Positions 4,046 to 50,554 of a stretch of 64,000 nt of DNA are shown here, in pieces. The translations under genes were made by a program, and so were the position numbers. The stretch is taken from positions 902,639-966,638 of the forward strand of contig CBDCNM010000002.1 of assembly GCA_965219385.1 (NCBI GenBank), given 5' to 3'. Numbering within the stretch: the stretch's first letter is position 1; each line of letters opens with the position of its first letter. Below the pieces are notes generated by a model, which saw nothing but the letters and a program-made list of their open reading frames with translations, was not told the origin of the DNA and did no database searches. The stretch comes from Candidatus Latescibacterota bacterium. GTDB lineage: Bacteria; Latescibacterota; UBA2968; UBA8231.

Positions 4046-5494
4046 GCTCGACTTTATCCATTTATGTAGCGTACGAGACGGTGTGTATCAAGCGGTTGAG
4101 TAGGCTTCGAGGGATTTTTATCAGGTCGTGTTGGTTGGGCAGGTTGGAAAAAGCCTGCCAGAGCCGTTGTCGGACCCAGGCCACGGCATCGGAAAAGGTG
4201 GGTTTTCGTTTGCCATACCAGGCCGTGGCATGGCAGGGGGAGGCGCTTTTGGGGGCCAGCCGATTGGCGATGAGGGCGACCAGACTAAACAAGGCCAAGA
4301 TGACCGGCGTGGTCCGGGCAATGGCCCGCTCATTCCATTGGCGTTGGGTTTCCATGCCCAGATGGGCGCGGGCTTCCTCAAAGGTAGTTTCTACCGACCA
4401 GCGTTGGAGAAAATAGGTCAGCATTTGCCGAGGGGACAGACGCACATCGGTCGAGAGCAAGGCTTGGGGCGCGAAGCGGCCGGCCGGGTCTCGGATCAGC
4501 AGCCAGCGGAGGGGCACGGCGGGCAAGCCAGTGTGATACCACAGCGCCGTTTGGCTGTAGGTTTCCACTGTATAGGGGCCGGCGGCATACCACCGGTCCA
4601 GGGTGAGGGGGTGCCAAGGGGTAGTCGGATCGTCCAGGTGCTGCTGGAGGGTGGGCTGCCGGGCGCCTTTGCCGCGGGGGCGTCCCCGCGTGTGCGGCGT
4701 GCGGGTTGGTGGTGGGTCATACAGGGCCGCATCCAACCGCAAGCGGGTAATCAGCCCCACGTGGGGCCGAACCGCGTCGAGAAAGGCCAAGGCGGAGAAG
4801 GTGCTATCGGCGACCACGACCAGCCGGCGGGTGGGCAGCCAGCGCGCTACCAGCTTGAGCATAGTCTGCCCCCGTTGCAACAGGGTGAGGGGGGTGCGCT
4901 GGCGCTGAGTATAGTAGCGGGCCGACGGACACAGCACACTCATAAAGGGTAAGGCCCAACTTCGATCCGCCCAAGGGATAGGCGCTACCAGCATCAACGA
5001 CAGCCAGCGCAAGCCGCTAGCCTTGACCAGGTGGGGCCCACTCGAGCGGACGGGATCCCGGTAGATGCCTCGGGCCCCAATCTGGGCGCCCCGGCGCCGC
5101 TCGATGGTCTCATCCAGGCCCAGGACCAGGGGCCCGTGGGGGGCAAAGGCGGCCACCAACGCCTGGAGGAGTAGCTTACTGCCGGCCAGGGGCGACCACA
5201 CACAGCGGTTGAGGATCCGGTGGTAGGTTTGAAAGGTAGGCTGTTGGCTCAAGCCCAACACCTCCAACACGGCGCTGACCGTGCGTTTACCCGGGGCTAA
5301 CAGCGCCCCGACCAACAGCGTCTGAGCCTGCGGCCAAACGCGGCTCGAAAAAAGGGGGGCAAAGGGCGACAAAATCGTTATTATATCCTTCGGCAGGGGG
5401 CTCATCGGTTTCTCCTGGGCTGTCGATGCTTGGATACCATCAACAGTACGGAGGATACCGGCCTCCTGCCATGCGCGTTTGGAAAAAGTCGAGC
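4046..5494 (-). mobile_element. IS701-like insertion sequence (full-length)
   Basis: Inverted repeats GCTCGACTTTATCCA (4046-4060) / TGGAAAAAGTCGAGC (5480-5494) enclose one transposase gene. Confidence 0.75.
4062..5405 (-). CDS. DDE transposase (IS701/IS4-superfamily type)
   Basis: 447 aa with LGLDET, VVADS and RWSVETTFEEARAHLG catalytic signatures. Confidence 0.85.
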   Translation of the reverse strand: MSPLPKDIITILSPFAPLFSSRVWPQAQTLLVGALLAPGKRTVSAVLEVLGLSQQPTFQTYHRILNRCVWSPLAGSKLLLQALVAAFAPHGPLVLGLDETIERRRGAQIGARGIYRDPVRSSGPHLVKASGLRWLSLMLVAPIPWADRSWALPFMSVLCPSARYYTQRQRTPLTLLQRGQTMLKLVARWLPTRRLVVVADSTFSALAFLDAVRPHVGLITRLRLDAALYDPPPTRTPHTRGRPRGKGARQPTLQQHLDDPTTPWHPLTLDRWYAAGPYTVETYSQTALWYHTGLPAVPLRWLLIRDPAGRFAPQALLSTDVRLSPRQMLTYFLQRWSVETTFEEARAHLGMETQRQWNERAIARTTPVILALFSLVALIANRLAPKSASPCHATAWYGKRKPTFSDAVAWVRQRLWQAFSNLPNQHDLIKIPRSLLNRLIHTVSYAT

Positions 5495-5673
5495 CCCTTC
5501 AGGTTTCGAGCAAGCTCCGCCCCCTCGACGAAAGGCACCCCAGAGTACGCCCACCCAATATCCGACCGATTGGACCGACGCGCAAGGGCAACGCCTCCAA
5601 CCACTGGGGCCTTTAGCCTAAGGCAGCCCGGGGGTCCGGGGAGTCCTCCCTGGAACCGACGCCCCGTCCTTAA
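5495..5673 (-). other. Structured ~180-nt non-coding segment X, copy 1
   Basis: Lies outside the inverted repeats of both flanking IS elements and contains several nested stems. Identical to 8515-8693 in reverse complement. Confidence 0.6.
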
Positions 5674-6603
5674 GAAGCCGTCTGAAAACTCTAATTTTCA
5701 TTTGATTCGTTTAAGTAGCAAGTGGATCATGGCAATCTGGATCAAGGCTTCACTATGGCGGGTCAAGACCTCATAATCTCGGGCATGTCGGCGAAAATTC
5801 ATCAACCACGCAAACGTGCGCTCGACGACCCACCGGCGTTTAACTACGGTAAATCCGGAGCCTTGTTTGGCGACGACTTCCAAGTCTATTTTGTGCGTCT
5901 TTTTTTGGTTGGCCACCCACGTTCGGATGGCCTCGCCTTGGTAGCCGCCATCAACCCACAGCTTGCGTAACCGAGCCACGCCGGCGGCCTTCAAGCGGGT
6001 CAACACCTGCTTCAAACCCTCTCGATCCTCGACATCGGCGGCGGTGACCACCACCTGTCGAAGCAAACCCGACGGGTCCACCAACAGATGCCGTTTGCGG
6101 CCTTTGATCTTTTTGCCGGTGTCATAACCGGTTGTTTTACCATGCGTTGCGGTCTTAATCGTCTGACTATCGACTACGCCAGCCGACGGCATCGCAGCCC
6201 GGCCGCTCTGGCGGCGCTCCCTCTTAGTCAGCCGATCCAACACCAGCGGCCAGACCCCTTGCAGGCTCCAGCGACGAAAGTAATCATACACCGTTTTCCA
6301 CGGCCCAAAACAAGCAGGCAACAACGCCCAAGGACACCCCGTCTTGTTCAAATACAAAAGGCCGTTGACAAGCTGGCGTCGATCCCGCGGCGGCCGACCC
6401 GGACCGTGAAGCCGCCAGCGCGGCGCGGGCAGCAACGGTTCGATCCGCTGCCATTGTGCATCGGTTAGATCGGTGGCATATTGCATACGCGGTGTACTCA
6501 TCATACAAGCCTTTCTGTTCAGAGTTTGTGGTGAAACCTGAATATGGCTCGATGAGTACGCCCGTTCAAATGCGGCTACATCAGAGGGTTTTCAGACGGC
6601 TTC
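5674..6603 (-). mobile_element. IS5-family element (IS1031 subgroup), copy 1
   Basis: Perfect 16-bp inverted repeats GAAGCCGTCTGAAAAC, TAA on both sides (5671-5673, 6604-6606). Confidence 0.9.
5698..6504 (-). CDS. IS5-family transposase
   Basis: YATDLTDAQW, TGCPWALLP, VVDSQT, GRKRHLLVD, WVDGGY, RWVVERTFAW. Confidence 0.92.
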   Translation of the reverse strand: MMSTPRMQYATDLTDAQWQRIEPLLPAPRWRLHGPGRPPRDRRQLVNGLLYLNKTGCPWALLPACFGPWKTVYDYFRRWSLQGVWPLVLDRLTKRERRQSGRAAMPSAGVVDSQTIKTATHGKTTGYDTGKKIKGRKRHLLVDPSGLLRQVVVTAADVEDREGLKQVLTRLKAAGVARLRKLWVDGGYQGEAIRTWVANQKKTHKIDLEVVAKQGSGFTVVKRRWVVERTFAWLMNFRRHARDYEVLTRHSEALIQIAMIHLLLKRIK

Positions 6604-7107
6604 TAAAATAATGCCCCCAAGAGTACCGAAAACCAACTTTCGGGCAATTCTCCCCGTTCTCGGCCAAAGACCATCCGGGGTCTCCCTGAATCCGCCAACG
6701 GCGGGGCCAGAATCTACCTGCGTACTGTCTCTGACCGCCGGTCTCAGGGGAAGCGCTGCAACGATCGGCACCTTGACCGCCACGGCGGCCTGCGTACTGT
6801 CACCATTTGCCGGTCCCGGGGAAGGCGGTCCTACCAGGACCAGCGTTTGAATGCGATCCAGGGCGATCACCTCCGGCAACCCATCTACGGTTTGAATCTC
6901 CTGAGACCGGATGCCGGTCCCGCTGCCCATAGACGACCGCAGCAAAGGCTCCCCGTATCGTCCGCCGTGCTGCCTGTCGATCTGGCCGGCCTCCAACACC
7001 TGTCCGGCCCACAGCGCCGCGCCGCCGTCGCTCGCCCAAGCTACAGACCCAGCCCCCATCAGGAGTAGGGACCACGATATACTTACAGCCATCCTATACG
7101 TCATCAT
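6604..7107 (-). pseudogene. Exported hypothetical protein, C-terminally truncated by IS5
   Basis: Signal-peptide-like N-terminus (…LLLMGAGSVAWA-SD) with an AGGAG ribosome-binding site. The frame runs into the IS end and stops at 6592. Confidence 0.55.
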
Positions 7108-7209
7108 TTTTGGCTCCTACCTGACAGAAAACTAGAGAAACTATCCATGTAAGCATTACCGGCCAAGTGCCCTTTGCCAAATCCACAAGCTGGTGTAGTA
7201 CCGGGATAT

Positions 7210-7584
7210 TCAAAAAAATGCACGTGTTGAGTAACTACCAGGAGTCAGTCCCTCTCTCAAGGCGTTATAGGTTCTCAGATCCCTATGATCAAGAAACGCA
7301 AACCTGTTTTCATCAAAGTCGACTTCCCCATCAGGATACCATGTATGTTGGTTGAATCTTATGGCGGCTGGATCGAAAATCGTCAAATCGAGCGGGGCAG
7401 AAGTCACATGCTCGTCTCCGTTTAAGTTATTTACCTCCAACCATATATTCGACGCGGAATCAGCTCCGACGATTTCAACCGGTCCGGGTTCGGTCACGCG
7501 AATGTCTCCCCATTGGCCGCCAGTCTCTTGCGTAAGGACCAATATGGGCGAGAACTTGCGTGCCAACTTGCTTATCCTTTCTAA
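7210..7584 (-). pseudogene. Fragment of a hypothetical protein, 5' end removed by IS5
   Basis: Open frame ERISKLARKFSPILVLTQETGGQWGDIRV... begins directly at the IS boundary and ends at a T7 run. One fewer T would continue as AFFEYPGT. Confidence 0.45.
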
Positions 7585-8514
7585 GAAGCCGTCTGAAAAC
7601 CCTCTGATGTAGCCGCATTTGAACGGGCGTACTCATCGAGCCATATTCAGGTTTCACCACAAACTCTGAACAGAAAGGCTTGTATGATGAGTACACCGCG
7701 TATGCAATATGCCACCGATCTAACCGATGCACAATGGCAGCGGATCGAACCGTTGCTGCCCGCGCCGCGCTGGCGGCTTCACGGTCCGGGTCGGCCGCCG
7801 CGGGATCGACGCCAGCTTGTCAACGGCCTTTTGTATTTGAACAAGACGGGGTGTCCTTGGGCGTTGTTGCCTGCTTGTTTTGGGCCGTGGAAAACGGTGT
7901 ATGATTACTTTCGTCGCTGGAGCCTGCAAGGGGTCTGGCCGCTGGTGTTGGATCGGCTGACTAAGAGGGAGCGCCGCCAGAGCGGCCGGGCTGCGATGCC
8001 GTCGGCTGGCGTAGTCGATAGTCAGACGATTAAGACCGCAACGCATGGTAAAACAACCGGTTATGACACCGGCAAAAAGATCAAAGGCCGCAAACGGCAT
8101 CTGTTGGTGGACCCGTCGGGTTTGCTTCGACAGGTGGTGGTCACCGCCGCCGATGTCGAGGATCGAGAGGGTTTGAAGCAGGTGTTGACCCGCTTGAAGG
8201 CCGCCGGCGTGGCTCGGTTACGCAAGCTGTGGGTTGATGGCGGCTACCAAGGCGAGGCCATCCGAACGTGGGTGGCCAACCAAAAAAAGACGCACAAAAT
8301 AGACTTGGAAGTCGTCGCCAAACAAGGCTCCGGATTTACCGTAGTTAAACGCCGGTGGGTCGTCGAGCGCACGTTTGCGTGGTTGATGAATTTTCGCCGA
8401 CATGCCCGAGATTATGAGGTCTTGACCCGCCATAGTGAAGCCTTGATCCAGATTGCCATGATCCACTTGCTACTTAAACGAATCAAATGAAAATTAGAGT
8501 TTTCAGACGGCTTC
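7585..8514 (+). mobile_element. IS5-family element (IS1031 subgroup), copy 2
   Basis: Same 16-bp inverted repeats as copy 1. Flanks TAA and TTA. Confidence 0.9.
7684..8490 (+). CDS. IS5-family transposase (identical to 5698-6504)
   Basis: Identical translation in the ORF track. Confidence 0.92.
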   Translation: MMSTPRMQYATDLTDAQWQRIEPLLPAPRWRLHGPGRPPRDRRQLVNGLLYLNKTGCPWALLPACFGPWKTVYDYFRRWSLQGVWPLVLDRLTKRERRQSGRAAMPSAGVVDSQTIKTATHGKTTGYDTGKKIKGRKRHLLVDPSGLLRQVVVTAADVEDREGLKQVLTRLKAAGVARLRKLWVDGGYQGEAIRTWVANQKKTHKIDLEVVAKQGSGFTVVKRRWVVERTFAWLMNFRRHARDYEVLTRHSEALIQIAMIHLLLKRIK

Positions 8515-12945: not shown

Positions 12946-13728
12946 CTAGTGCTCGGGCCTGAACAGGGGGCGCATTCCAGGCCGCAAGGTTTTGATCTTG
13001 TCGCGCAGACGGGCGGCTTCTTCAAAATTTTCGGCTTCTACCGCCGTGCACAGATCCCGCTCGAGTTGTTCTTGCTGCGACAGGGGGCGCTCTTTTTCCA
13101 GCTCTTCGTACCAATCGTGCAGGAAGGCCAACTCGGGCAAGTCCTCTTCGAGCACATCGCCGTCCCACTCCTCTAGAAATTTTTCGATGCGGCTTATGCC
13201 CTTTTGCACTTCCTCCAGAGCAACCGGGTACTTATCGTCTTCGAGAGCCAGCATGGCTCGAGCCCGTGCCTGCATCATGGCGGCGTGGGGGTAATACTGC
13301 TCAAAGTACCACTTGTCGTCGTCGTTGTCGGCGTAGTGCTGGACCAGAGCAAAGATCTTCAGGGTGTGTTCGGTGTCCTCTACGACCCCGACGTAGTTTT
13401 CCAGATAGAACAGGCTCAGGTAGCGATGGTAGTACTGCCAGGCTTCCTGGAAGAGGTCCTCGCATTCCCGCCCTTCCAGGGCAAAGGGCGCTGCGTTTTC
13501 GCGAGTCTGTCCGTAGGTTTCCACCATGTCTTCGTAGTAATCCAGCAGAGAGGTGTAGCCATGGGGGCGCTGGCCGTCCGGACGTCCCTGTATCTCCAGC
13601 TGTAGAATACCCATATCGATGCGTATCTGGATTTTTTCAATGCCATCTTTGCCCTTGATCTGGCGGGCGTGAAATTCGTCGGGGTCAAATTGCCAGTCGT
13701 TCAGCAGGTCGCCGATATCATAATTCAT
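12946..13728 (-). CDS. UvrB/UvrC-motif-containing protein
   Basis: C-terminal UVR motif LERDLCTAVEAENFEEAARLRDKIK. N-terminal IQIRIDMGILQLE-GRPDG-RPHG block. Confidence 0.75.
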   Translation of the reverse strand: MNYDIGDLLNDWQFDPDEFHARQIKGKDGIEKIQIRIDMGILQLEIQGRPDGQRPHGYTSLLDYYEDMVETYGQTRENAAPFALEGRECEDLFQEAWQYYHRYLSLFYLENYVGVVEDTEHTLKIFALVQHYADNDDDKWYFEQYYPHAAMMQARARAMLALEDDKYPVALEEVQKGISRIEKFLEEWDGDVLEEDLPELAFLHDWYEELEKERPLSQQEQLERDLCTAVEAENFEEAARLRDKIKTLRPGMRPLFRPEH

Positions 13729-13871
13729 GGGGAAGCTCTCTTGCAGAGTTTCTGGTAAATTAAGAGCCTGGAGTCTGGAACGCAACTTTAATCCTGGCCT
13801 CGTCCTGCCGTGCAAATTTCCGCACCCGGACAGGTTCCGGTACAGAATATACTGCAGAATGGGGTTCCGCG

Positions 13872-15467
13872 CTACCTGCGGCTGACCTTGATACTGCCCA
13901 CGGCTACACCGATGACCAGGGCGATCACGCCGCCGATGATCAGGGCATTGCGGAGGATATTGGCGCGTGCCTCCACGCGGATGGTGACGTCTTTTTCCTG
14001 GGCTTCGATTTTTTCGTTGCCCATGTACCCGGCGGCTTCCACCCTGACATCGTACTCGCTTTCGCCCAGGTCTGCCGGCGGCACGAGGGTGATGTTGACC
14101 GGTTCTTTTTCACCGGGCAGGATCCGGTCTATGGTATCGGGCCTGGCTGAATAGGTCCAGTCCAGCGGCGGGGTCAGGAGCAGGTGAACCTGTTCGACCT
14201 CCAGGGTGCCCGTATTCAGCAGGTCGATCCGCACAGTGGCCTCTTCACCTACCTTGATCTCCTGATAGCGGTTGGAGATGATGGTCTCCAGGGCACCCTG
14301 GCCTCGGGGAATCAACTCGAAGCGCTCCTTGTTGCCCTTGATGGAGTTGACATCCTCCAGTTCCATGGGTTTGTCGCCGTACTGGCGGTTCAACGCGCCA
14401 ATCTGCCGAAAGCCTTCCCGGTCGGTCACGAATACGTAAAACTCCATGGTCTGATCGACATAGTGTCGGCTGAGCTGCTCCGGGATCTGGAGTTCGAGTT
14501 CGAGGTGCTGGCGGGTAACTTCTTCGCTGAACTTCACTTGCGTGAGACTGGCGTTGGTGGCGGGGTCCAGAAAGGCCGGGGCGATCTCCTGGGGGAGGTT
14601 GACAATGACCAGGCGGAAGCTCTTTTCGTCCTCGGCGAGGCGTTCGAGGATGAGGTCGTAGCGGACCCGGGTGTTGAGATCCCCCTCCTGGGAGAACTGC
14701 ACGGAGTTGATGGTGGGAATGTCCTGGAGAGATTCCTTGCGCAGGACAATCCAGAGATTTTGTGCCGAGTTGTCGAATCCACTTTGAGCATCACCGAATG
14801 CGCTCAGAGACGGAGTCTCCTGCATTTTCATCGCGACCACGACCTCGTCATCGTCGTTCAACAAGCGGAATTTCAGGTTTTTTTGCTCATAGAGTTTGAG
14901 CGAGGAGATGCGGGTTTCATAGGGGTCGGCAATGATCAGACCCATTTCGTCCTGGATGGAAATCAGGATGTTCTGGACTTCGAGCAGGGCCCTGATTTCC
15001 TCAGGGGTTTTCTGGGGGTTCAAGGATAGGGCCTGATTGAGATTGGAGGAATTCCGCAGGACGATCTCCACCTGCCGCCGGCCGTCCTGGGTGCGATATT
15101 TCTTGGCCTCCATGATAGAAATATGGGTGGCGTCGCGCAGGAAGGAGAGGCGTTTTTCTTCCAGGGCGATTTCCGCCTGACGGAATTCCAGTTCGGCCTG
15201 CTGGAATTGGCGTTGTGCCTCGTTGAGCATGTCCAGGGTGCGTATATTCTGTTCGTAGAGGTCCTGGATCTCGTCGTAATTGCTCTTCTTGGTCTCCATG
15301 TCGAGTTTGGCTGCGCGCACCAGCCACTCGGCATTGCGCAGCTGGATCTGGTAAAAACGCTGCTCTTTGGTGCGGAGGTCTCTGGCTCCTGCCTCCAGAC
15401 CTTGGTCGGCTGTTCCCGGCCGGGAGGACAGGAGGAATACAGCAGCGAGGAGATAGAATAGAGCCAT
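13872..15467 (-). CDS. Exported coiled-coil + NEW3 (COG1470-like) protein with C-terminal membrane anchor, paralog A
   Basis: Signal peptide, helical hairpin, NEW3-like NTG...PPLDW...ILPGE...PPAD...EYDV, then a hydrophobic helix ending KVSRR. Confidence 0.75.
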   Translation of the reverse strand: MALFYLLAAVFLLSSRPGTADQGLEAGARDLRTKEQRFYQIQLRNAEWLVRAAKLDMETKKSNYDEIQDLYEQNIRTLDMLNEAQRQFQQAELEFRQAEIALEEKRLSFLRDATHISIMEAKKYRTQDGRRQVEIVLRNSSNLNQALSLNPQKTPEEIRALLEVQNILISIQDEMGLIIADPYETRISSLKLYEQKNLKFRLLNDDDEVVVAMKMQETPSLSAFGDAQSGFDNSAQNLWIVLRKESLQDIPTINSVQFSQEGDLNTRVRYDLILERLAEDEKSFRLVIVNLPQEIAPAFLDPATNASLTQVKFSEEVTRQHLELELQIPEQLSRHYVDQTMEFYVFVTDREGFRQIGALNRQYGDKPMELEDVNSIKGNKERFELIPRGQGALETIISNRYQEIKVGEEATVRIDLLNTGTLEVEQVHLLLTPPLDWTYSARPDTIDRILPGEKEPVNITLVPPADLGESEYDVRVEAAGYMGNEKIEAQEKDVTIRVEARANILRNALIIGGVIALVIGVAVGSIKVSRR

Positions 15468-15488
15468 CGGGATACTTGTGGGCTGTTT

Positions 15489-17030
15489 TTACCTGCGGCT
15501 GATCTTTATGCTGGCCAGACCGATGCCGAGGACCAGCAGGACCAGAACGCCGATGAGGATGGTATTGCCGGCTATATTCGAACGCGCGCCGATGCGTATG
15601 GTGATATTTTTCTCGAGCGATTCGATGTTTTCGTTTCCCACCTGCCCCTGGGCCTCTATGCCCAGTTCGTAATCCCCCACGGCAATATCGCTCGGGGGGC
15701 GCGCCAGGATCTGTACTGGTTTGCGCTCATCGGGCTCGAGCAGCTTGATGAGGGTGGGGTCCACCTCGCTTTCCCACTCGTAGGGCAGGTCGAGTTCGGC
15801 CTTGACGTTCTGCACGGCCACGGAGCCCCGGTTGAGAAATTCGACCCGGAGCTGGAGTTCCTGGTCCACCTTGATCTCCTGATAGCGATTGGAAACCAGG
15901 ACCTCCAGCTTGCCCATGCCCGTGGGAATCAATTCCAGTTTGACGTACTCGCTCTGGAGGGCTTTGATCTCTTTTTCGGGAACGGGTTCATCGCCGTACC
16001 GGACTTTCAGGGCATTGATTCGGGCGTACCCGGTGGGCTGGGTGACCAGGGCGAAAAAGGTCCGGGTGCGGCCGATGAAACGACGGTCCAGCTTTTCGGG
16101 GATCTCCAGCTCCAGGAAAATCTTGACCTGGGAGGTATGCTCGTCGAATTTGACCTGGTTTACCTTGGCGCCCGAGTCCACGAAGGCGTAATCAATGCGC
16201 CGGGGAAGTCCCGCAACGGCCAGGGAAAAGCTTTGCTCCTCGTCGGACAGGCGCTCCAAGGTGAGTCCGAAGTTGACGGTGTTGTTGAGTTTGCCTTCCT
16301 GCGAGAACTGGGCTGAATTGATGCTGGGCAGGTCCTGCCGGCCGCCTTTTTTGAGTATGATCGGATTTTTGTGGGTGGTTTCCAGGTACCTGACCTGCAC
16401 GACCACGGCGGACTGGTCCTGCAACAAGCGGAATGACAGGGGTTTGCGTTGGCCTACGGCAAGCGAGGGGATGCGCCTTTCATAGGGTTCGCCGACGATG
16501 GGTCCGTTTATCAGAGAGACGAGAGAGACGAAGATATTTTCCACTTTGAGCAAGGTGCGCAGTTCGTCCTCGCTGAGAGACGGGTCCACCAGCAGGGCGT
16601 CGCGGGTATCCGAGGCGTTCTCCAGGACCAGATCCACCATGCTCTTGCCGTCCTCGGTCTTGTACTTGCGAGCCTCGACCACGATGATGTGGGTGGCGTT
16701 TTCCAGCAGGTCGAGTTTGGTCTGCTCGAGCAAAATCTCGGCCTTCGCGTAATCCAGTTTGGCCTGTTCGTACTTATTCAGGGTCTGCTTGAAGCGCTGC
16801 AAAGCGATGAAACCCTGGTCGAAGAGTTCCCTGGTGGTATCCCGTTCTTTCCTGTAGGTCTCCAGGCTCTTGCGCCGCTGTTCCAGCAGCAACCGGCGAT
16901 CCTCGAGCTTGAGCATGTTGAGTTTTTGCTCTTTGGTCAGAGATGGCTGGACGGCTGTTTGCGCCCAACCCGTCCACGGAAGGACCAGGGCAAAGATCGC
17001 CATGTACAAGGCTGGGGGCATGCGGTTCAC
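15489..17030 (-). CDS. Exported coiled-coil + NEW3 (COG1470-like) protein with C-terminal membrane anchor, paralog B
   Basis: Colinear with paralog A (ATHI...EAxKYxTxDG, INSxQFSQEG, LERL, SNRYQEIKV, KISRR). GTG start overlaps the tolC stop. Confidence 0.75.
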   Translation of the reverse strand: MNRMPPALYMAIFALVLPWTGWAQTAVQPSLTKEQKLNMLKLEDRRLLLEQRRKSLETYRKERDTTRELFDQGFIALQRFKQTLNKYEQAKLDYAKAEILLEQTKLDLLENATHIIVVEARKYKTEDGKSMVDLVLENASDTRDALLVDPSLSEDELRTLLKVENIFVSLVSLINGPIVGEPYERRIPSLAVGQRKPLSFRLLQDQSAVVVQVRYLETTHKNPIILKKGGRQDLPSINSAQFSQEGKLNNTVNFGLTLERLSDEEQSFSLAVAGLPRRIDYAFVDSGAKVNQVKFDEHTSQVKIFLELEIPEKLDRRFIGRTRTFFALVTQPTGYARINALKVRYGDEPVPEKEIKALQSEYVKLELIPTGMGKLEVLVSNRYQEIKVDQELQLRVEFLNRGSVAVQNVKAELDLPYEWESEVDPTLIKLLEPDERKPVQILARPPSDIAVGDYELGIEAQGQVGNENIESLEKNITIRIGARSNIAGNTILIGVLVLLVLGIGLASIKISRR

Positions 17031-18394
17031 TCAAAGTGGCCCATCAGGCGTCGCAGGGCGGCCTGTCTCTGGATATAACTGCCCTGGTTCTGGAACAGCC
17101 TGTCCTGGGCCTGGAAAAACTGTGCGCGCACCTGCTCGAGCAGGCTTTCGTCGGCCTGTCCCTTGTCCTTGAGGGTCTGGTTGATTTCCAGCCGGCGCCG
17201 GGCGATTTTGACCTGTTTTTCCTGGATGCGCTGCTGCTCCCTGGCTTCGAGCATGGACTGGTAGGCCTGGCGCACGCTCAGTTCGACCGCGGCACTCAGA
17301 TCGCGCAACTCCACTTGCTTCTGGTGCAGGCGGGCTTTCTCCTGCTTCCTCCGACCCAGCCGGGAAGTCCCTTCGAAGATGGGGATCCGAGCTTCGACCT
17401 GGGTGAACCAGCGCTCCTTCTCTTCGGCGGGCCCCGGGGGAGGTTGCCGTTCCTTGAGCTGGTATTCCGACACCATGTTAACCCCCCAGGTTGCCCCTTC
17501 CTTGTCGATGCTGACCGCGGTATTTTTGCGGCCGTCTTCGACCCCGGCATTGAGCGAGATATCGGGACCATAGGCCCAGTGCACCTCGCGCACCACCCGT
17601 TTTTGCTCCTCGACTTCCCTGTCCTGCCGGGCGACCTGTACGCTGTTCCGCAGAGCAATCTCCACGGTCTGGTCCTGTTCCATCTCAAAGTCCGCGAGTC
17701 GTCCTTCCACCTGGATATCGATCCCGATCGGCTGGCCGATCAGGCGCAGAAGTTCCATTTTGTTGTTGAGTTGCCGGCGTTCCAGATTGCTGATGGCGAG
17801 TTCCTCGTTCAGGACATTGAGTTCGGCGCTCAGAACATCTTCTTCGGTGGCCAGGCGGCGCTGGTAGCGGGCCTCCTGGCGCTCAAGGGTCTTTTGGAAA
17901 CCGTCGCGGGATTCGCGGCGGATGGCGATCTGGCGCTCCTGAAGCAGGACCAGGTGGAAGGTCTCCCACATCCTGGCCAGTACCTCGTAGACCTTGCCTT
18001 CATAGCCGTAGACCGCCTGGCGGAGCTCGGCCCGCAGGCCCACTTCCCGGGCCGCGTTGGGCCCGAACTCGAAGAGGCGTTGAGAAAAGTGCAGCCGGCT
18101 GGCCAGGTGGTCCCTGGTCGCGCCGTCGAGTTCGGTGCGGGCGGCATTGTAATCGGCCCGCAGATCCAGGTGAGGCATAAAGCGCGAGCGCACCACGACG
18201 CCGCTGCCCTGCACCTGCTCGATTTCTTCCCGGGCCCGGATCAATTCGCGGTTGTGTTCCATGGCCGCTTCGAGGCAAAAGGGGAGCGTGAGCTCGTCAA
18301 CCTCGGCCCGGGCGCTGGGGGAGCCGAACAGCAGAATTCCCAGGATCCAGTAGGGGGGTCTCAGCATTCTTTTGTCGGGTAAGGGTCTGTCCAA
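17027..18394 (-). CDS. TolC-family outer-membrane efflux protein
   Basis: Signal peptide, LTLPFCLEAAMEHNREL, two helical OEP-like repeats (QRLFEFG; RIPIFEG, VRQAY). TTG start behind AGGAGG. Confidence 0.85.
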   Translation of the reverse strand: MDRPLPDKRMLRPPYWILGILLFGSPSARAEVDELTLPFCLEAAMEHNRELIRAREEIEQVQGSGVVVRSRFMPHLDLRADYNAARTELDGATRDHLASRLHFSQRLFEFGPNAAREVGLRAELRQAVYGYEGKVYEVLARMWETFHLVLLQERQIAIRRESRDGFQKTLERQEARYQRRLATEEDVLSAELNVLNEELAISNLERRQLNNKMELLRLIGQPIGIDIQVEGRLADFEMEQDQTVEIALRNSVQVARQDREVEEQKRVVREVHWAYGPDISLNAGVEDGRKNTAVSIDKEGATWGVNMVSEYQLKERQPPPGPAEEKERWFTQVEARIPIFEGTSRLGRRKQEKARLHQKQVELRDLSAAVELSVRQAYQSMLEAREQQRIQEKQVKIARRRLEINQTLKDKGQADESLLEQVRAQFFQAQDRLFQNQGSYIQRQAALRRLMGHFE

Positions 18395-18492
18395 GAGTTA
18401 CCTCCTGGTTTCGCGTAGCTGCGCTGGCCCTGAATAGGAGATCGTCTCAAGATTGTAAGGATAGGCGGAAAGGGGTAGAATGTCAAGAATCG

Positions 18493-18595
18493 GCAGATAA
18501 ACTACTTGACATGGATAGCGTTTTAACTTGATATGGATAGCGTTTTAGGTTCATCCTAATAACAGGGTCTGTGGAAATCCAGTCCCAAAGGAGAC
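18493..18595 (+). repeat. Duplicated promoter/RBS block, copy 1, with an internal 22-bp tandem duplication (18504-18547)
   Basis: GCAGATAxACTACTTGACATGGAT...TTTTAGGTTCATCCT...TCTGTGGxAATCCAGTCCxAAAGGAG, similar to 20683-20768. Contains TTGACA and AAGGAG. Confidence 0.8.
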
Positions 18596-18596
18596 G

Positions 18597-18839
18597 TGCC
18601 AAGCGACCCGGATATTCTGCGGGGCGGAACCGTTGTTCTTCATAATGACCCCCTGGATGAGAGACCACACGCGGGCCGGCAACGGCCGAATGGTAAGCCG
18701 ACACCGATACCTGGATAAGGACGAGATGACGGAGAAGATGGACCATTTCCAGGAGGTGTTGCAGAAGCCGGTCATCGATATCATGGATGTGAACAACGAC
18801 GGGCTCATCTTGGACGCCATCCAGGATTTCTTTTCGTGA
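18597..18839 (+). pseudogene. Headless C-terminal fragment of a gene (possibly DUF1611-like)
   Basis: Frame ...RIFCGAEPLFFIMTPW...LQKPVIDIMDVNNDGLILDAIQDFFS* has no good start. The family assignment is a recalled resemblance only. Confidence 0.35.
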
Positions 18840-18859
18840 ACGGACATGAGGACTGCACC

Positions 18860-19129
18860 ATGAGAGAAGACATCGAGAAGCGGCTGTACGAGCTGATAGA
18901 GACTTTCGGGGACCAACCGATTGACTTGTCGATCGAGGGCGAGGCGCGGAGGGTGCTCCATATCATTTTGAGCGAGTCCATACAAGCGATGGAATTCGTC
19001 ATCGCCATTGAGAACGAATTCGAAATCGAGTTCGACGACGAAGACATCTCCATCGAATTTTTTCTCGATCTGGATCATATCGTCTTATCCGTGCTGAGGA
19101 GTCTGGCACAATCAAGTGCCGTCACCTAA
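18860..19129 (+). CDS. Acyl carrier protein-like protein
   Basis: Small and acidic, with ESIQAMEFVIAIENEFEIEFDDEDI matching the ACP DSL...EEEFxIEI-D pattern (ES instead of DS). Confidence 0.7.
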   Translation: MREDIEKRLYELIETFGDQPIDLSIEGEARRVLHIILSESIQAMEFVIAIENEFEIEFDDEDISIEFFLDLDHIVLSVLRSLAQSSAVT

Positions 19130-19140
19130 GGAGTCTTGCC

Positions 19141-20541
19141 ATGTTCAAGACCATTCTGTTTAAGGAAATCAAGGGCCATTTAAGCACAATAACCTTCGCC
19201 GTATGGCTTGGCGTCTCGTGTTTTCTGGTATGGATGGCCTTGGAGAGCGGTTATTCGAGATACGAGCAGAAGCATCAGCAATACCTCGATATGAAAAGAG
19301 AGGCCAAAGACGCCTCCAGCAAAAAATACGATGTCAACAAGCCGGAAGAGGAGCTCTTCCGGGTGCTGCGCAAGCCGTCCGTGTTGAGCACGATCGTCTA
19401 CGGGCTGGAAGGCAAGATGCCGGTCTATATGAGCGTCAATCCCAACGGCGTACGGTCCGGTTCGGGGTCGGGCACGGAGGAATCCGTGCTGAGCCTGTTT
19501 GGGGAGCTGGATTTTCTCCTGGTCATCGAGCTGATTCTCGGGCTGATGGCCGTGGTGCAGGCGGCCAGTCTGGTGTCTTCGGAGGGGGAAAACGGAACCC
19601 TGAAGCTAATTTTAGCCAACCCGGTCTCCCGCAGCACCGTCTTGCTGGGCAAGAGTATGGGCGGATACGCTGTCGTCGCCTTTGTCTTTGTGTTTTCCAC
19701 CTTTATCGGGCTTTTGCTCCTCTCGACCAGGGGGTTTCCGCTCTTCGACTCGGCTGTGCTCGCGCCGATTCTGTTGATCATGGTGGGGAGCTTGGTCTAT
19801 CTGCTGTGCATCTTTCTAGTGGGGATGATCGGTTCCATCCTGTTCCTGAATTCCCAAGTGGCCTTGGTGCTGAGTGTCTCGATCTGGGCCGCGCTGTCTT
19901 TTCTCGTGCCCAAAAGCGCCCGGACCGCGGCGGAGTTGATCCGCCCGGTAGAAGACGAGCGGACGGTTTACTTGCGTCAGAAGCACGCCCGTGAAGACCT
20001 GCTCAGGGCCCAGCACAAGGAAATGAGCGAGAATTACCCCCAGGAACTGGATCCAGGATGGCTGATGGCCAACTTCGCGACCCTGGCAGAGGAAGGCGCG
20101 GCGGTTTGGAAGAAATACAGCGACCGGATCTCCAAAGATCTGACCACCATCGCCGAGGACCACCACCGGGAGAAGAAAGCGCAGGAATCCCTGGGTAAGG
20201 TGCTGTCCCGGGTATCTCCCGCGGGCAGTTTCCGACTGCTCTTGGCCAATGTGTCCGGTACGGGCGACCAGGTGAGGTGGCGATTACTGGAAGCAGCCTG
20301 GAACTACCAGAATACAGTCAATGACAAGGTCTTCGCGAAAAAACCCTTGATCGCTGTCCAGAATATGAGTTTCCCCCATGATATGGGTGTAGAGGACCCA
20401 CCACCACCACCTCTGGTCAGGGCGCTGCCCCTCGGCAGTGTCTTAACGGAATCGACGCTAGACATAGCCTTATTATGCCTCTATGCCGTCTTGCTCTTTA
20501 TGCTGGCCTATATGCTGTTTCTGCGTCGCTCCATATTGTAA
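19141..20541 (+). CDS. ABC-2-type transporter permease
   Basis: MFKTILFKEI, SSEGENGTLKLILANPVSRSTVLLGK, multiple transmembrane helices, RVSPAGSF. Confidence 0.85.
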   Translation: MFKTILFKEIKGHLSTITFAVWLGVSCFLVWMALESGYSRYEQKHQQYLDMKREAKDASSKKYDVNKPEEELFRVLRKPSVLSTIVYGLEGKMPVYMSVNPNGVRSGSGSGTEESVLSLFGELDFLLVIELILGLMAVVQAASLVSSEGENGTLKLILANPVSRSTVLLGKSMGGYAVVAFVFVFSTFIGLLLLSTRGFPLFDSAVLAPILLIMVGSLVYLLCIFLVGMIGSILFLNSQVALVLSVSIWAALSFLVPKSARTAAELIRPVEDERTVYLRQKHAREDLLRAQHKEMSENYPQELDPGWLMANFATLAEEGAAVWKKYSDRISKDLTTIAEDHHREKKAQESLGKVLSRVSPAGSFRLLLANVSGTGDQVRWRLLEAAWNYQNTVNDKVFAKKPLIAVQNMSFPHDMGVEDPPPPPLVRALPLGSVLTESTLDIALLCLYAVLLFMLAYMLFLRRSIL

Positions 20542-20682
20542 CCCAGCACGACCATTGCGTGAGGACGGGGTGAGGGTGTATGAAACGCGTCCCTGACTGA
20601 TATTCCCCCGGAAAAATGGACCCATCAAGCGGCCCCTTTGCGTTGGTGCTGATCGAATTGAGCCGGAGAGAGATACTCCAGA

Positions 20683-20768
20683 GCAGATAGACTACTTGAC
20701 ATGGATGGTGTTTTAGGTTCATCCTGATAGTATAGAATCTGTGGGAATCCAGTCCAAAAGGAGGCGAG
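20683..20768 (+). promoter_or_regulatory. Promoter/RBS block of the ABC ATPase, copy 2 of the repeat
   Basis: TTGACA and AAGGAGG directly upstream of ATG 20770. Diverged direct repeat of 18493-18595. Confidence 0.7.
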
Positions 20769-20769
20769 C

Positions 20770-21492
20770 ATGCTGGAAATCATCGATATGTCCAAACACT
20801 ACGACGAGGTCCGGGCCGTCAACCACCTCAACCTCACCATCCAGCCGGGTGAAATCTTCACCATGCTGGGCGCCAACGGCGCCGGCAAGACCACCACCCT
20901 CATGGTGTCCCTCGGCTTTACCGAACCCACTGCCGGCACGGTCAAAATCTGCGGCATCGACGTCACTAAAGACCCCCTCGAAGCCAAAAAGCACGTGGCT
21001 TATGTGTCGGAAAATGTCATGCTCTACGGCAACTTTACCGCGCGCCAGAATCTGGACTTTTTTGCCAAGCTGGGGGGGCGCAAGAATGCCACCGACCAGG
21101 ATTACAACCAGGTCATGGAGCGGGTGGGTTTGCAGCCGGATGCCTTTAGCCGCCGGGTGAAGGGTTTTTCCAAGGGCATGCGGCAGAAGCTGGGGATTGC
21201 CATCGCGATCATGAAGGATGCCCAGGTCATCCTGCTGGACGAGCCCACCTCGGGTCTGGATCCCAAGTCGGGAGCCGAGTTTCTGCAGCTACTGGCCGAA
21301 TTGCGCGGCGAGGGCAAGGCCATCTGGATGACCACGCACGACATATTCCGGGCCAAGGAGATCGCCGATCGGATCGGCATCATGGTGGAGGGGAATCTGG
21401 TGAAAACCTTTACGCGAGAGGAACTGGAACGGGAGGACCTGGAGCGGATTTATGTAGAATACGTCAGCCGGCCCATGGAAGAGGCGGCCTGA
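20770..21492 (+). CDS. ABC transporter ATP-binding protein
   Basis: GANGAGKTT, FSKGMRQK, LLDEPTSGLD, TTHD. Confidence 0.95.
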   Translation: MLEIIDMSKHYDEVRAVNHLNLTIQPGEIFTMLGANGAGKTTTLMVSLGFTEPTAGTVKICGIDVTKDPLEAKKHVAYVSENVMLYGNFTARQNLDFFAKLGGRKNATDQDYNQVMERVGLQPDAFSRRVKGFSKGMRQKLGIAIAIMKDAQVILLDEPTSGLDPKSGAEFLQLLAELRGEGKAIWMTTHDIFRAKEIADRIGIMVEGNLVKTFTREELEREDLERIYVEYVSRPMEEAA

Positions 21493-42416: not shown

Positions 42417-43553
42417 ATGAGGTACACGCCCAAGCTCAGGTGGATCGCCTGGCTCCTTTGCGCGGTGCTGTGGACTTGCAACGGGTCCGAGGAAGCCGGG
42501 AAAGATACCACCGCGAGCACGGCTGCGGATAGCACGGCTGCGGACAGTACCCGGATCGCAGAAGCCGTCCCGGTGGAAACCGCCCCGGCCACGAGTGGAG
42601 ATATTTCTTCCTTTCTGTCCTTCAACTCGACCCTGGAGACCGAAGCGGCCGTGGAGATTTATCCGCGCATCGGCGGCCTGGTAGAAGCGCTCGAGGGGGA
42701 AGAGGGAGACTGGGTCGCCAGCGGGGATACCCTGTTGCGCATCAACGACGACGAACTGCGGCTCGCCTTCCGCGAAAGCGAGGTGAATCTGCACCATCTC
42801 GAGGCCGGTTTCGAGCGTACCCAGGAGATGTTTCAGCGCCAGCTGGTCAGCGAGCAGGATTACGAGAACGCCAAACTCGAAATAGAACAGGCCCGTCTCG
42901 GGTGTCAAAAAGCCCGGCTGGCGCTGGAGCACACCCGGGTCTGCGCCCCTTTTTCCGGGGTCATCGCCGAGCGCCACGTGCAGGTGGGTAGCCGGGTGGA
43001 ACCCGGGACCAGATTGTTCGCCCTGGTCAAGCTCGACGAGATGCTGGCCAGGGTTTTTGTTCCGGGCCAGCATCTGACCAGCATTCGCACAGGGCAAAAG
43101 GCCATCATTACCTCTGATTTCCTCGAAGATAGGCGTTTTGCCGGCTGGGTCAAGCGCATCAGTCCGGTCGTGGATCCCAAGAGTGGTACCTTCAAGGTCA
43201 CGGTCGGGATCGAGGCGAGTCAGGAGCACCTGCGCCCGGGCATCTTCGTCAATGTGGAAATCGTCACCGATACCCACGAAAACGCGGTGCTGGTGCCCAA
43301 GGAAGCCGTGGTCTACGACGGCGGGGATCGCTACGTATTCGTGGTAGAGGGCACCACGGCCTCCAGGGTCAAACTGGATGCCGGTTTTGAAAACAGCCGC
43401 TTCATTGAAGCCCTTTCTCTCATCCAGCCCGATACCCCCATCATCGTCGTAGGGCAGAACGGGTTGAAGGACAAGGCCCGGGTAAAGATCGTCAACCAGG
43501 AAGACCATACCCTGGAAGCTGGTAGCCCAGAACCTGACGCCGACCAGGGCTGA
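42417..43553 (+). CDS. RND efflux periplasmic adaptor subunit
   Basis: PRIGGLV, GDWVASGD, alpha-hairpin, APFSGVI, ISPVVDPKSGT, LRPG. Confidence 0.92.
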   Translation: MRYTPKLRWIAWLLCAVLWTCNGSEEAGKDTTASTAADSTAADSTRIAEAVPVETAPATSGDISSFLSFNSTLETEAAVEIYPRIGGLVEALEGEEGDWVASGDTLLRINDDELRLAFRESEVNLHHLEAGFERTQEMFQRQLVSEQDYENAKLEIEQARLGCQKARLALEHTRVCAPFSGVIAERHVQVGSRVEPGTRLFALVKLDEMLARVFVPGQHLTSIRTGQKAIITSDFLEDRRFAGWVKRISPVVDPKSGTFKVTVGIEASQEHLRPGIFVNVEIVTDTHENAVLVPKEAVVYDGGDRYVFVVEGTTASRVKLDAGFENSRFIEALSLIQPDTPIIVVGQNGLKDKARVKIVNQEDHTLEAGSPEPDADQG

Positions 43554-43564
43554 CGACACCGCCG

Positions 43565-47377
<3,813 letters not shown>

Positions 47378-47386
47378 GGAGTTGTT

Positions 47387-50300: not shown

Positions 50301-50554
50301 CCACCATCTGCGGATTGATCCCCATGGCCGTGGGCAATTCCAGGATGGTGGGGATGCCCTACGCGCCGCTGGGGCGCACCATGATGGGGGGCCTGCTGGC
50401 CTCCATGGTGCTGACCCTGGTGATCGTGCCGCTGTGCTACACCTTCTTCGATGATTTGCGCACCCTGCTCCAGCGGGTTTTGGCTTCTGCCTTTAAGGAG
50501 GACCCCGCTGGTGTACAAGGTGCGCAGTCCGCGACCGCCGAATATGGAAAATAG
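47387..50554 (+). CDS. RND efflux permease (second subunit)
   Basis: NRPVS, GLVVDNAIVIVENI, GVVVNNAIVLID, RFRPILMT. Confidence 0.92.
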   Translation: MKEEAQYPLPRLSVNRPVSVVMVLVALLVVGYIAYTRIPINLFPEGLEWDQLGVWVSYPNASPVEVEQKIARPIEEAVATVSRVGKIRTNSSRGGCWTRIEFRPHTDMKMAYAELHDRMERVMPELPDEVERIHVRRWDHNDIPIMWMVATLEGNFSDPQFLLETHLRPALQRIEGVGNVDIWGGRERQIIIELDQEKVRSHRVNVYELVGKLRNQNFALPGGSVREGGKKIYVRSLGKLQSVEEIRALSIDQEHNLKLSDVALVGLARPLRDWINRVDRKESMGIEIQRASGGNIARISTEVRATLEELQSRPRFQGVDFEIFWDQGEHVAESVDNLKTSGLWGGLFAAMVLFFFLRAVRMTSIITLAIPLSILVTMTALYFIGWSLNIGTMMGLMLSLGLVVDNAIVIVENIYRKRQEGVEPRRASIEGAGEVGLAVTMATLTTAVVFLPLILMSDDQNFSFWMLRIGAPVIVGLMASLFIALAFIPLAALRLSSARERGEGKLIPSLRGFYLHCLKWVLRHRLDALILVVLAMASILIPQQGMKHTDQEEGQRRGLDLSFEMPSGQSLARADTFMSTVEDTLLNHREDYNIKTVRVWFRNSWGRTEILFREAENLKWYQVALEDFLTRLGLRDKPHLGYKEVVEDIKKRMVLPVGFTMQVNWEQQDQDTRIAISLYGEDTRVLMQLSREVERRLGNIPGLLAVHTDMDRGSTELQVRLDRDRIRRYGVDPRMVSNNIAYGLRGLNLSRFQTEDGKEVQMWLQFEEGNRQSMQSLRNLTFPTQEGKEIPLESLADLYVTRTLGNIHREDRKTTLTVTARAAKDDTKGIFEQVDWAMRDFEMPRGYHWDKGSRYVRLEEADRSQQFALLLSVIFIFLLMGVLFESFVLPLSVIISIPFAFLGVYWFLYLTGTSYDIMSMIGTVILVGVVVNNAIVLIDLTNRLRAEGMDRYAALLEAGKHRFRPILMTSFTTICGLIPMAVGNSRMVGMPYAPLGRTMMGGLLASMVLTLVIVPLCYTFFDDLRTLLQRVLASAFKEDPAGVQGAQSATAEYGK

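Follow-up and report, generated by a model that had tools for sequence, protein, structure and literature searches.

Results

The tolC-B-A genes

Three genes, supported as real by gene and domain calls, lie in tandem on the minus strand of the window, the 64,000-nucleotide stretch of DNA that was analysed. The first, tolC (17027-18394), encodes a 455-aa OEP channel protein (PF02321, E=9e-41; TIGR01844 below cut-off). Paralogue B (15489-17030, 513 aa) starts with a GTG codon that overlaps the tolC stop by 4 nt (an alternative ATG start lies 9 nt further in), and paralogue A (13872-15467, 531 aa) begins 21 nt after B. The coordinates confirm the arrangement described in the initial annotation, that is, tolC followed by two colinear paralogues, the first of which overlaps its stop. 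A and B can be aligned over their whole length (39% identity, E=8e-121) and have a similar architecture, with a putative signal peptide, a hairpin (residues 33-112 in B), three Ig-like domains and a C-terminal helix; the hairpin tips of A and B are separately conserved. A sigma-70-like site upstream of tolC (18458..18486, minus strand) is a consensus match only, and the promoter scan returned 4 sites against 3.1 expected, with no excess over shuffles. RNA runs X1-X3 contributed small shares, as scattered low-depth pieces that covered intergenic DNA too, and the plasmid collection search gave no match.

The AF2 model of B (pLDDT 88, pTM 0.48, so that relative domain orientation is not fixed) comprises a helix (6-16), the hairpin (33-71/77-112), three beta-sandwiches (115-225, 236-370 and 375-481) and a final helix (486-512). 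No strand precedes the hairpin, into which the signal segment runs directly. The model and the ends of the two sequences (KVSRR in A, KISRR in B) agree with the coiled coil and the C-terminal helix ending K[VI]SRR that had been noted earlier. The Ig-like/NEW3 stack proposed at the same time was upheld in part: three Ig-like domains are present, and Pfam assigns NEW3 (PF10633) to the last sandwich only, a match found in 83/83 family members scanned. Foldseek with the whole B model returned generic Ig stacks only (TM about 0.2), with no solved homologue among the matches listed.

A C-terminal helix with a basic tail is present in 125/125 aligned members, in line with the claimed C-terminal anchor. 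The N-terminal segment has a median hydropathy of 1.7 as compared with 2.8 for this helix and, in both A and B, stays under the membrane-helix threshold; by crude heuristics, a loose cleavage-site pattern occurs in 117/125 members and a lipobox in 4. The family is thus predicted to be without the N-terminal anchor of classical adaptors.

Kinship of the hairpin with periplasmic adaptors

The three 30-residue segments on which the initial annotation had based its comparison are present in the sequence, the adaptor segment lying in the RND adaptor of the window (42417-43553, plus strand). The likeness to this adaptor was borne out by hhalign (P=90.9%, E=1e-6), which aligned the hairpin only and places the resemblance above chance. 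A profile made from family sequences only, with no adaptor among them, matched 30 PDB sequences at E<=10, 20 of them on the hairpin (best E=2e-5 and 1e-3). Nineteen of these 20 are periplasmic adaptors, the exception being ataxin-3 (E=1.7); the top match, 6vej, which we take to be a TriA-TriB fusion, accounts for two hairpin matches. When the hairpin profile was run over the 16,145 ORFs of the genome, the three family members came out on top, followed by six adaptor-like ORFs, with no TolC. NCBIfam adaptor models also match the hairpin region only, below cut-off (for A, TIGR01730 at residues 35-107, E=0.0054).

On the PDB and ORF searches, the possibility that the hairpin is simply a generic coiled coil was rejected. 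An origin from TolC was likewise rejected (hhalign against TolC, P=11.8%; weak PF02321 matches in 7/83 members). Shape alone is not specific, adaptors scoring Z=10.8-10.9 and unrelated hairpins 10.3-10.4. Judged from profile comparisons, the hairpin of A and B is homologous to the hairpins of periplasmic adaptors.

The kinship ends there. No lipoyl halves, beta-barrel or membrane-proximal domain was detected in A or B, and 0/83 members matched HlyD or lipoyl Pfam models at E<=0.01, which the RND adaptor of the window does match. The hairpin was detected in 114/117 proteins, a count that is partly circular since the profile was derived from many of them; two relatives, P0163 and P0166, are hairpin-less. 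At the positions of the RLS tip motif, R occurs in 52/125 members, L in 114/125 and S/T in 97/125, the full motif being present in 38/125; A has L and T but no R, and B has L only, with neither R nor S. Complex prediction with a truncated TolC trimer (154-450) and one tip each of A and B gave a score of 0.01, which weighs neither way.

The ABC transporter genes and a RiPP cassette remnant

An ABC-2 permease (19141-20541; PF12679) and an ABC ATPase (20770-21492; PF00005) are encoded on the plus strand, divergently from tolC-B-A as reported in the initial annotation, and its statement that the locus has no classical adaptor gene holds between 12.9 and 22.5 kb. Orthologues of the ATPase (75-86% identity) stand beside tolC in many relatives, and the genome contains one other close copy. 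The permease has six membrane helices and long periplasmic helices. Its AF2 model (pTM 0.90) matches the folds of NosY, ABCA and ABCG (Z=17-26), that is, the six-helix fold of type V transporters. NosY is the closest (E=1.5e-18; Z=26.3, rmsd 2.4 over 251 aligned residues) and KpsMT-KpsE is among the fold relatives (Z=11.9).

Between tolC and the permease lie three features, all on the plus strand, that had been overlooked. At 18526..18599, a 76-bp copy, 83% identical, of the stretch that precedes the ATPase gene (about 20694-20769) marks a cassette junction. It is followed by a 68-aa 3' remnant of an S8-protease/TIGR04066-like RiPP maturation gene (18633-18839), the C-terminus of which is that of a 631-aa protein of locus L005, and by a gene for an acyl-carrier-like protein (18860-19129; weak PF00550/ACP models below cut-off), 80% identical to the L005 copy and part of the same radical-SAM RiPP remnant. 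The DNA from 18595 on is 87% identical to L005, and the permease, the last gene of the remnant, is 90% identical to the L005 cassette permease over 188 aa. On this sequence comparison, the permease of the window is a single one and part of a RiPP cassette that was inserted recently and has decayed.

The usual partners of the family are permease pairs, three of which occur elsewhere in this genome without a neighbouring core. The best matches of these orphan pairs lie at core loci of other genomes; the matches were drawn only from family-locus permeases, so that the argument rests on the identity contrast and not on where the matches lie. The proposed ABC partnership stands as far as a permease and an ATPase are present at the locus, but the permease found there came with the cassette and the usual pairs are elsewhere. 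Permeases of this family were found in 61/67 family-bearing genomes and their modules reach ten or more per genome. A permease-adaptor fusion was found in two assemblies, and HEAT/TPR/CBM9-like lipoproteins are interleaved with the permease pairs at several loci.

Linkage to tolC across genomes

The survey covered 151 genomes of one phylum, 67 with the hairpin-Ig family and 84 without; these genomes are related and the 80 metagenome loci represent close relatives, so that the counts are not independent events. The window-type tolC subfamily occurs in 50/151 genomes, all among the 67, and in 0/84 of the others. The association with tolC envisaged in the initial annotation holds for 53/54 window-type tolC loci, at which a hairpin-Ig gene lies within 700 nt in one of several gene orders, but some loci of the family have no tolC. 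In Aminicenantes-type loci another TolC subfamily occupies the same place (32/36 with enough flank). The hairpins fall into two length classes one heptad apart, the long ones beside window-type TolC (n=61) and the short ones beside other TolCs (n=51), with no crossing; 43 members had no tolC in range. The A+B pair is a lineage feature, many relatives having a single adaptor gene. Overall, the family is associated with tolC and an ABC-2 transporter. It comprises at least 234 clusters at 50% identity, at present labelled 'NEW3 domain-containing protein'. No longer fused form was found among 7,998 candidates of 1006-2870 aa, which is weak evidence.

Discussion

Comparison with known systems

The closest solved relative of the permease core belongs to NosDFY, although NosY is without the long periplasmic helices (276 versus about 470 aa). 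To our knowledge, the NosDFY system includes neither TolC nor a hairpin adaptor. YbhG, the adaptor of YbhFSR, is a classical HlyD-type protein. E. coli YbhFSR is described as an ABC exporter whose two membrane subunits differ (PMC13739795), which recalls the permease pairs, YbhF itself carrying fused nucleotide-binding domains. In reviews, adaptors are described as having an N-terminal anchor together with a hairpin, lipoyl and beta-barrel domains. In MacA-MacB-TolC, an adaptor hexamer is described to dock tip to tip on TolC (PMC10094684). This system shares with ours an ABC ATPase, an inner-membrane dimer, a TolC trimer and a hairpin of the same sequence family (MacA is among the PDB matches). 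However, MacB is a type VII transporter whereas the window permease is of type V, and the N-terminal helix and the lipoyl, beta-barrel and membrane-proximal domains of MacA contrast with the three Ig-like domains and C-terminal helix of A and B. Paired adaptor paralogues are known from TriA-TriB-TriC-OpmH of Pseudomonas aeruginosa, in which TriA and TriB are reported to be 36% identical with non-equivalent roles (PMC13328181), a situation reminiscent of A and B with their 39% identity and distinct tips; unlike A and B, the Tri proteins are adaptors of the classical type and serve an RND pump. COG1470/NEW3 proteins (~390 aa) also have an Ig-like stack ending in PF10633, but are about 100 residues shorter. 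COG1470 clusters from Pseudomonadota, Bacillota, Myxococcota and others are distant Atlas neighbours of the family (0.76-0.77), which provides no more than a lead for the history put forward in the initial annotation, whereby a COG1470 protein would have gained the hairpin. In the literature we found no description of a C-anchored hairpin-Ig adaptor.

A candidate ABC-TolC exporter

The system is probably a tripartite type V ABC-TolC exporter whose adaptor belongs to a new, C-anchored class, a reading to which we assign a probability of about 0.7. An OEP channel accompanies the family except in family f3 and three metagenome loci, and ABC transporter, channel and adaptor co-occur in 61/67 genomes, genus g11 being the exception; the permease-adaptor fusion points in the same direction. 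Against this reading count the g11 genomes, the loci without tolC, the absence of the RLS arginine from A and B and of the serine from B, and a hairpin shape that alone is not specific. Also against it, a contig of a DNA run holding the locus is without 17766-18531, the 5' half of tolC, so that a strain holding the locus has tolC half deleted. We infer that A and B dock on TolC. Sec would export both proteins, the signal peptide would be cleaved and the C-terminal helix would stay in the inner membrane. The Ig stalk would replace the membrane-proximal, beta-barrel and lipoyl domains and raise the hairpin, so that six hairpins could form a tube meeting the TolC trimer tip to tip. Here the hexamer would probably consist of three A and three B, elsewhere of six like subunits. 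The anchors and lower Ig domains may encircle a type V ABC transporter that combines the shared ATPase with a permease pair that can be swapped for another; in this way, one ATPase-adaptor-TolC core would serve several permease modules. ATP hydrolysis would then push cargo out through TolC. The nature of this cargo is the weakest step; the most plausible candidates are peptides, or other amphipathic compounds, produced by the genes that neighbour each permease module.

A broader version of this proposal has, in our estimate, slightly better than even odds. In several little-studied diderm phyla, the family would represent a second class of TolC adaptor that was built independently, with the classical docking hairpin alone on a C-anchored Ig stalk of three to five domains, and one ATPase-adaptor-TolC core would work with exchangeable, genome-wide type V permease pairs, some of them carried on mobile cargo cassettes.

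Alternatively, TolC and the hairpin-Ig proteins may form an envelope-spanning tether or gated duct rather than an efflux pump, the NosY-like ABC transporter being a motor on periplasmic partners or a lipid or lipoprotein extractor, dispensable for part of the function. NosDFY does act as a motor on periplasmic NosD, and the closeness of the permease core to NosY and the lipoproteins interleaved with permease pairs would fit this explanation. So would genus g11, in which five genomes (drafts, 84-97% complete) keep tolC-B-A but yielded no permease of the family and no cognate ATPase. In diverged g11 pairs the three genes have dN/dS of 0.23-0.36, indicative of purifying selection (neighbours, 0.04-0.14). 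This constraint, however, is two to three times weaker than elsewhere at similar dS, and in one g11 genome all three genes are disrupted. Moreover, permeases are retained in most family-bearing genomes, and their multiplication, together with the carriage of one in a RiPP cassette, suits substrate-specific export. We consider the tether or duct unlikely.

Less likely still is a model without docking on TolC, in which the sole role of the hairpin is to assemble the protein into an oligomeric periplasmic cage above the permease. The tolC gene would then be co-regulated and its product used by classical adaptors elsewhere, such as that of the RND operon (42417-50554), which is without its own tolC. 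Adaptors with hairpins are reported from Gram-positive bacteria, which have no outer-membrane channel (PMC4446572), and the scarcity of the full RLS motif would be in keeping with a cage. Loci without tolC also exist: no tolC lies within about 9 kb of the short-hairpin members in the closed genomes of family f3 (other OEP genes are present there), and at three Aminicenantes-type loci neither tolC, permease nor ATPase was found nearby. On the other hand, two unrelated TolC subfamilies have each been recruited beside the gene, hairpin length follows the TolC subfamily, and window-type tolC was found only in genomes with the family.

KpsE forms a coiled-coil cage around a polysaccharide ABC exporter. 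That A and B resemble such cages, being anchored at both ends owing to an uncleaved N-terminal segment, so that the base of the hairpin lies close to the inner membrane and the topology is not 'inverted', appears very improbable: the kinship of the permease fold with KpsMT-KpsE, the N-terminal window reaching a hydropathy of 1.6 in 71/125 members and the fusion P0268, in which this segment reads as a membrane helix (445-463) ~10 residues ahead of the hairpin, speak for it, but the hydropathy values and heuristic cleavage-site pattern given above, including those of A and B themselves, speak against it.

If the family docks on TolC as the exporter model predicts, the hairpin by itself would be a transferable docking module and the remainder of the adaptor could be replaced, which would bear on how pumps open TolC and how ATP hydrolysis is coupled to this. 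The model would also assign a function to proteins that now bear a NEW3 label and explain the many orphan ABC-2 permease pairs of these genomes.

A locus for a predicted exporter

The system encoded by tolC, the two paralogues B and A and an associated ABC transporter is real, conserved and apparently undescribed. We predict, with a probability of about 0.7, that it is a tripartite ABC–TolC exporter with a C-anchored adaptor; its working mode would resemble that of known tripartite ABC–TolC pumps, although A and B are not classical adaptors.

Gene calls and Pfam assignments agreed with the gene positions proposed in the initial annotation. On the minus strand, tolC (17027–18394) is followed by B (15489–17030), whose first 4 nt overlap the tolC stop, and by A (13872–15467), while the permease (19141–20541) and the ATPase (20770–21492) lie on the plus strand. 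A and B align end to end with 39% identity. An AF2 model of B, built from a 40-sequence alignment (pLDDT 88, pTM 0.48), comprises from N- to C-terminus a short helix, a hairpin (residues 33–71 and 77–112), three beta-sandwiches, only the last of which is the Pfam NEW3 domain, and a further helix. The C-terminal membrane helix claimed for A and B is indeed present, with its basic tail, in 125 of 125 family members. In most tandem loci the gene immediately after A encodes a UVR-motif protein (12946–13815 in the window; two further paralogues in this genome), and dapB, dapA and purH come next.

A profile search (E ≤ 1e-30) returned 234 clusters at 50% identity, with members named from Latescibacterota, Gemmatimonadota, Aminicenantales, Acidobacteriota, Bacteroidota and Zixibacteria. 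The close homologues carry the name Ca. Latescibacterota, probably also the phylum of this DNA. Among the 150 clusters listed, 117 are at least 430 residues long and 114 of these carry the hairpin, a count that is partly circular. B has matches in 67 of the 151 genomes of the phylum; genomes lacking the family gave weak profile matches at most (best E about 1e-5 to 1e-10). Stalk variants include members of 718–797 residues in which the first Ig domain is repeated (P0128, P0131 and P0132) and two that have a signal peptide but no hairpin (P0163 and P0166). Some members bear the automatic JGI label 'AcrA (membrane-fusion protein)'.

The hairpin is of the adaptor type

The family hairpin is adaptor-type. 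A profile built from 125 family sequences, none of them a classical adaptor, gave matches at E ≤ 10 to 30 distinct PDB sequences. On the hairpin, the matches were 19 periplasmic adaptors, such as MexJ, MacA, MexA, ZneB, AcrA, EmrA and the RND adaptor entry 6vej, and ataxin-3; the others were six NEW3-bearing glycosidases and four ribosomal uL16 proteins. Single-hairpin E-values were modest (1e-3 to about 1); the weight rests on specificity. Run against the 16,145 ORFs of this genome, the hairpin profile placed the family's three members first. Six adaptor-like ORFs came next (E 7e-11 to 0.19), with two weaker matches to unrelated ORFs and none to TolC. A tblastn search with the adaptor of the window confirmed three of the six, two adjoin OEP (TolC-type channel) genes and the sixth is a candidate only. 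The likeness to the window's RND adaptor, proposed from sequence, was borne out by hhalign (P = 90.9%, versus 11.8% for TolC); by structure alone, the top matches (HlyD, Z 10.9, rmsd 1.7, 82 aligned residues; EmrA; AcrA) tied with unrelated hairpins. At the positions of the RLS tip motif, 52 of 125 members have R, 114 have L and 97 have S or T; the R has been lost from both A and B, whose tip sequences are separately conserved across 22 tandem loci. None of 83 family members matched lipoyl or HlyD Pfam models, and A and B are outside the classical adaptor family. The window also contains an RND operon (42417–50554) in which a single classical adaptor gene accompanies two genes of AcrB type; the operon lacks its own tolC.

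Linkage to tolC and to the ABC transporter

All tolC-linkage counts are inflated by kinship among genomes. The window's TolC has matches in 50 of 151 genomes (E ≤ 1e-15), all within the 67 having the family, and adjacency to tolC was found at 53 of 54 window-type loci (family gene within 700 nt); loci without tolC also exist. Among the 17 family genomes without window-type TolC, some loci are cut short by the end of the contig. In family f10, the two loci inspected adjoin a different TolC; at the f3 and f4 loci the retrieved flank contains no tolC, though all five f3 genomes tested have OEP genes elsewhere. An upstream flank of 5 kb is available for 36 of the 80 metagenome loci that are related to an Aminicenantes member, and in 32 of these 36 an OEP gene lies no more than 3.5 kb away. 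Hairpins of 155 family proteins from the locus set fall into two length classes one heptad apart: 61 long ones beside window-type TolC and 51 short ones beside other TolCs, with 43 proteins lacking tolC in range. Single-adaptor loci in two phyla (L012, L016, L020, L024, L029, L111) adjoin a gene for a sigma-54 response regulator, in many cases accompanied by one for a GAF histidine kinase.

The permease family occurs in 66 of 151 genomes (E ≤ 1e-40). Of these, 61 belong to the 67 with the adaptor family; the five permease-only genomes are drafts, 61–93% complete. The permease is of type V, with NosY as its nearest relative, from which it differs by added long periplasmic helices. Permeases are mostly paired, with up to six per locus and at least 10 matches in some genomes, and in P0267 and P0268, from two assemblies, a PF12679 permease is fused to the adaptor. 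Three permease pairs of this genome are orphans, and their best matches lie at relatives' core loci (56–66%, 42–46% and 29–36%). A second operon without tolC (L001:9310–16796; about 3907300–3914800 of contig G000:C2) encodes two permeases, a short-hairpin paralogue, an ATPase and a 756-aa DUF2341/repeat/LamG protein. Its permease, paralogue and ATPase genes lie at about 3907300–3912500; the permeases and paralogue are frameshifted, the latter at a run of G, reflecting either pseudogenes or assembly error. HEAT/TPR/CBM9-like lipoproteins of about 450–480 aa, sometimes arrayed, are interleaved with permease pairs (L009:6097–7554 and 13204–18773; L011:6132–7571; L030; L036; L043), and an IS-interrupted copy seemingly lies at L003:3358–3597; they are possible cargo or periplasmic partners.

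Origin of the window's permease

Just downstream of tolC–B–A–ATPase, a relative's locus has a complete radical-SAM RiPP cassette (L005:14786–21455), with an S41 peptidase, FlmA-like peptide, FlmE/OhkG-like radical SAM enzyme, S8/TIGR04066-like fusion, ACP-like protein and ABC-2 permease, all assigned below curated cut-offs. From 18595 on, the window DNA matches the end of this cassette at 87% identity (core genes, 71–80%) and retains its last three genes only: the S8/TIGR04066-like one as a fragment, the ACP-like one and the permease. The remnant adjoins a 76-bp duplicate of the segment upstream of the ATPase gene. The permease reported as divergent from tolC is present, on the plus strand, but differs from the usual partner. 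That a permease of the family travels within a cassette for peptide biosynthesis is the main pointer to cargo, if only a hint. A transposase cluster occupies 4062–8490, with a DDE_5 family member at 4062–5405 and a 268-aa one at 7684–8490, a second copy of which is in L003.

Results against the exporter and alternative readings

All five genomes of genus g11 have tolC–B–A, and neither the permease family nor the cognate ATPase was found in them, which counts against an exporter. There, dN/dS of the three genes is 0.23–0.36 in five diverged pairs and 0.13–0.18 in one close pair; it is mostly 0.05–0.20 in other genera, and 0.24–0.37 in two close pairs of one non-g11 genus, whose neighbour genes are likewise high. 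In one g11 genome all three genes are broken. A contig of sequencing run X7 joins 17765 to 18532; the deleted stretch, 17766–18531, includes the 5′ half of tolC. On its right side the deletion ends in the small tandem repeat at the junction with the cassette. An identical TolC fragment of 253 aa is also on record (P0341). Three metagenome loci have the adaptor alone. A tether or motor without efflux, which the g11 genomes favour and the permease co-occurrence speaks against, seems unlikely. A cage without docking, favoured by the loci that lack tolC, is less probable still. A doubly anchored protein, suggested by the fusion protein, in which what was the signal segment looks like a membrane helix near the hairpin, is the least credible reading beside the exporter with a C-anchored adaptor.

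As to precedent, the available portions of PMC8277102, PMC4446572, PMC10094684, PMC13328181, PMC13739795 and PMC10849945 contain no Ig-stalk, C-anchored adaptor; in the last, COG1470 is called yerB in an unrelated context. The literature, mainly open-access main texts, yielded nothing linking COG1470 or NPCBM-associated/NEW3 proteins to an ABC transporter and nothing under terms for non-canonical adaptors, and Latescibacterota with TolC gave, by their listing, unrelated papers only.

Other genes in the window

A protein of three DUF5069 repeats (55318–56616) is encoded upstream of a radical SAM/SPASM gene. In a low-GC stretch, 61825–63990 encodes a fusion of an SNF2 helicase with an Mrr-type nuclease domain and may be a defence gene.
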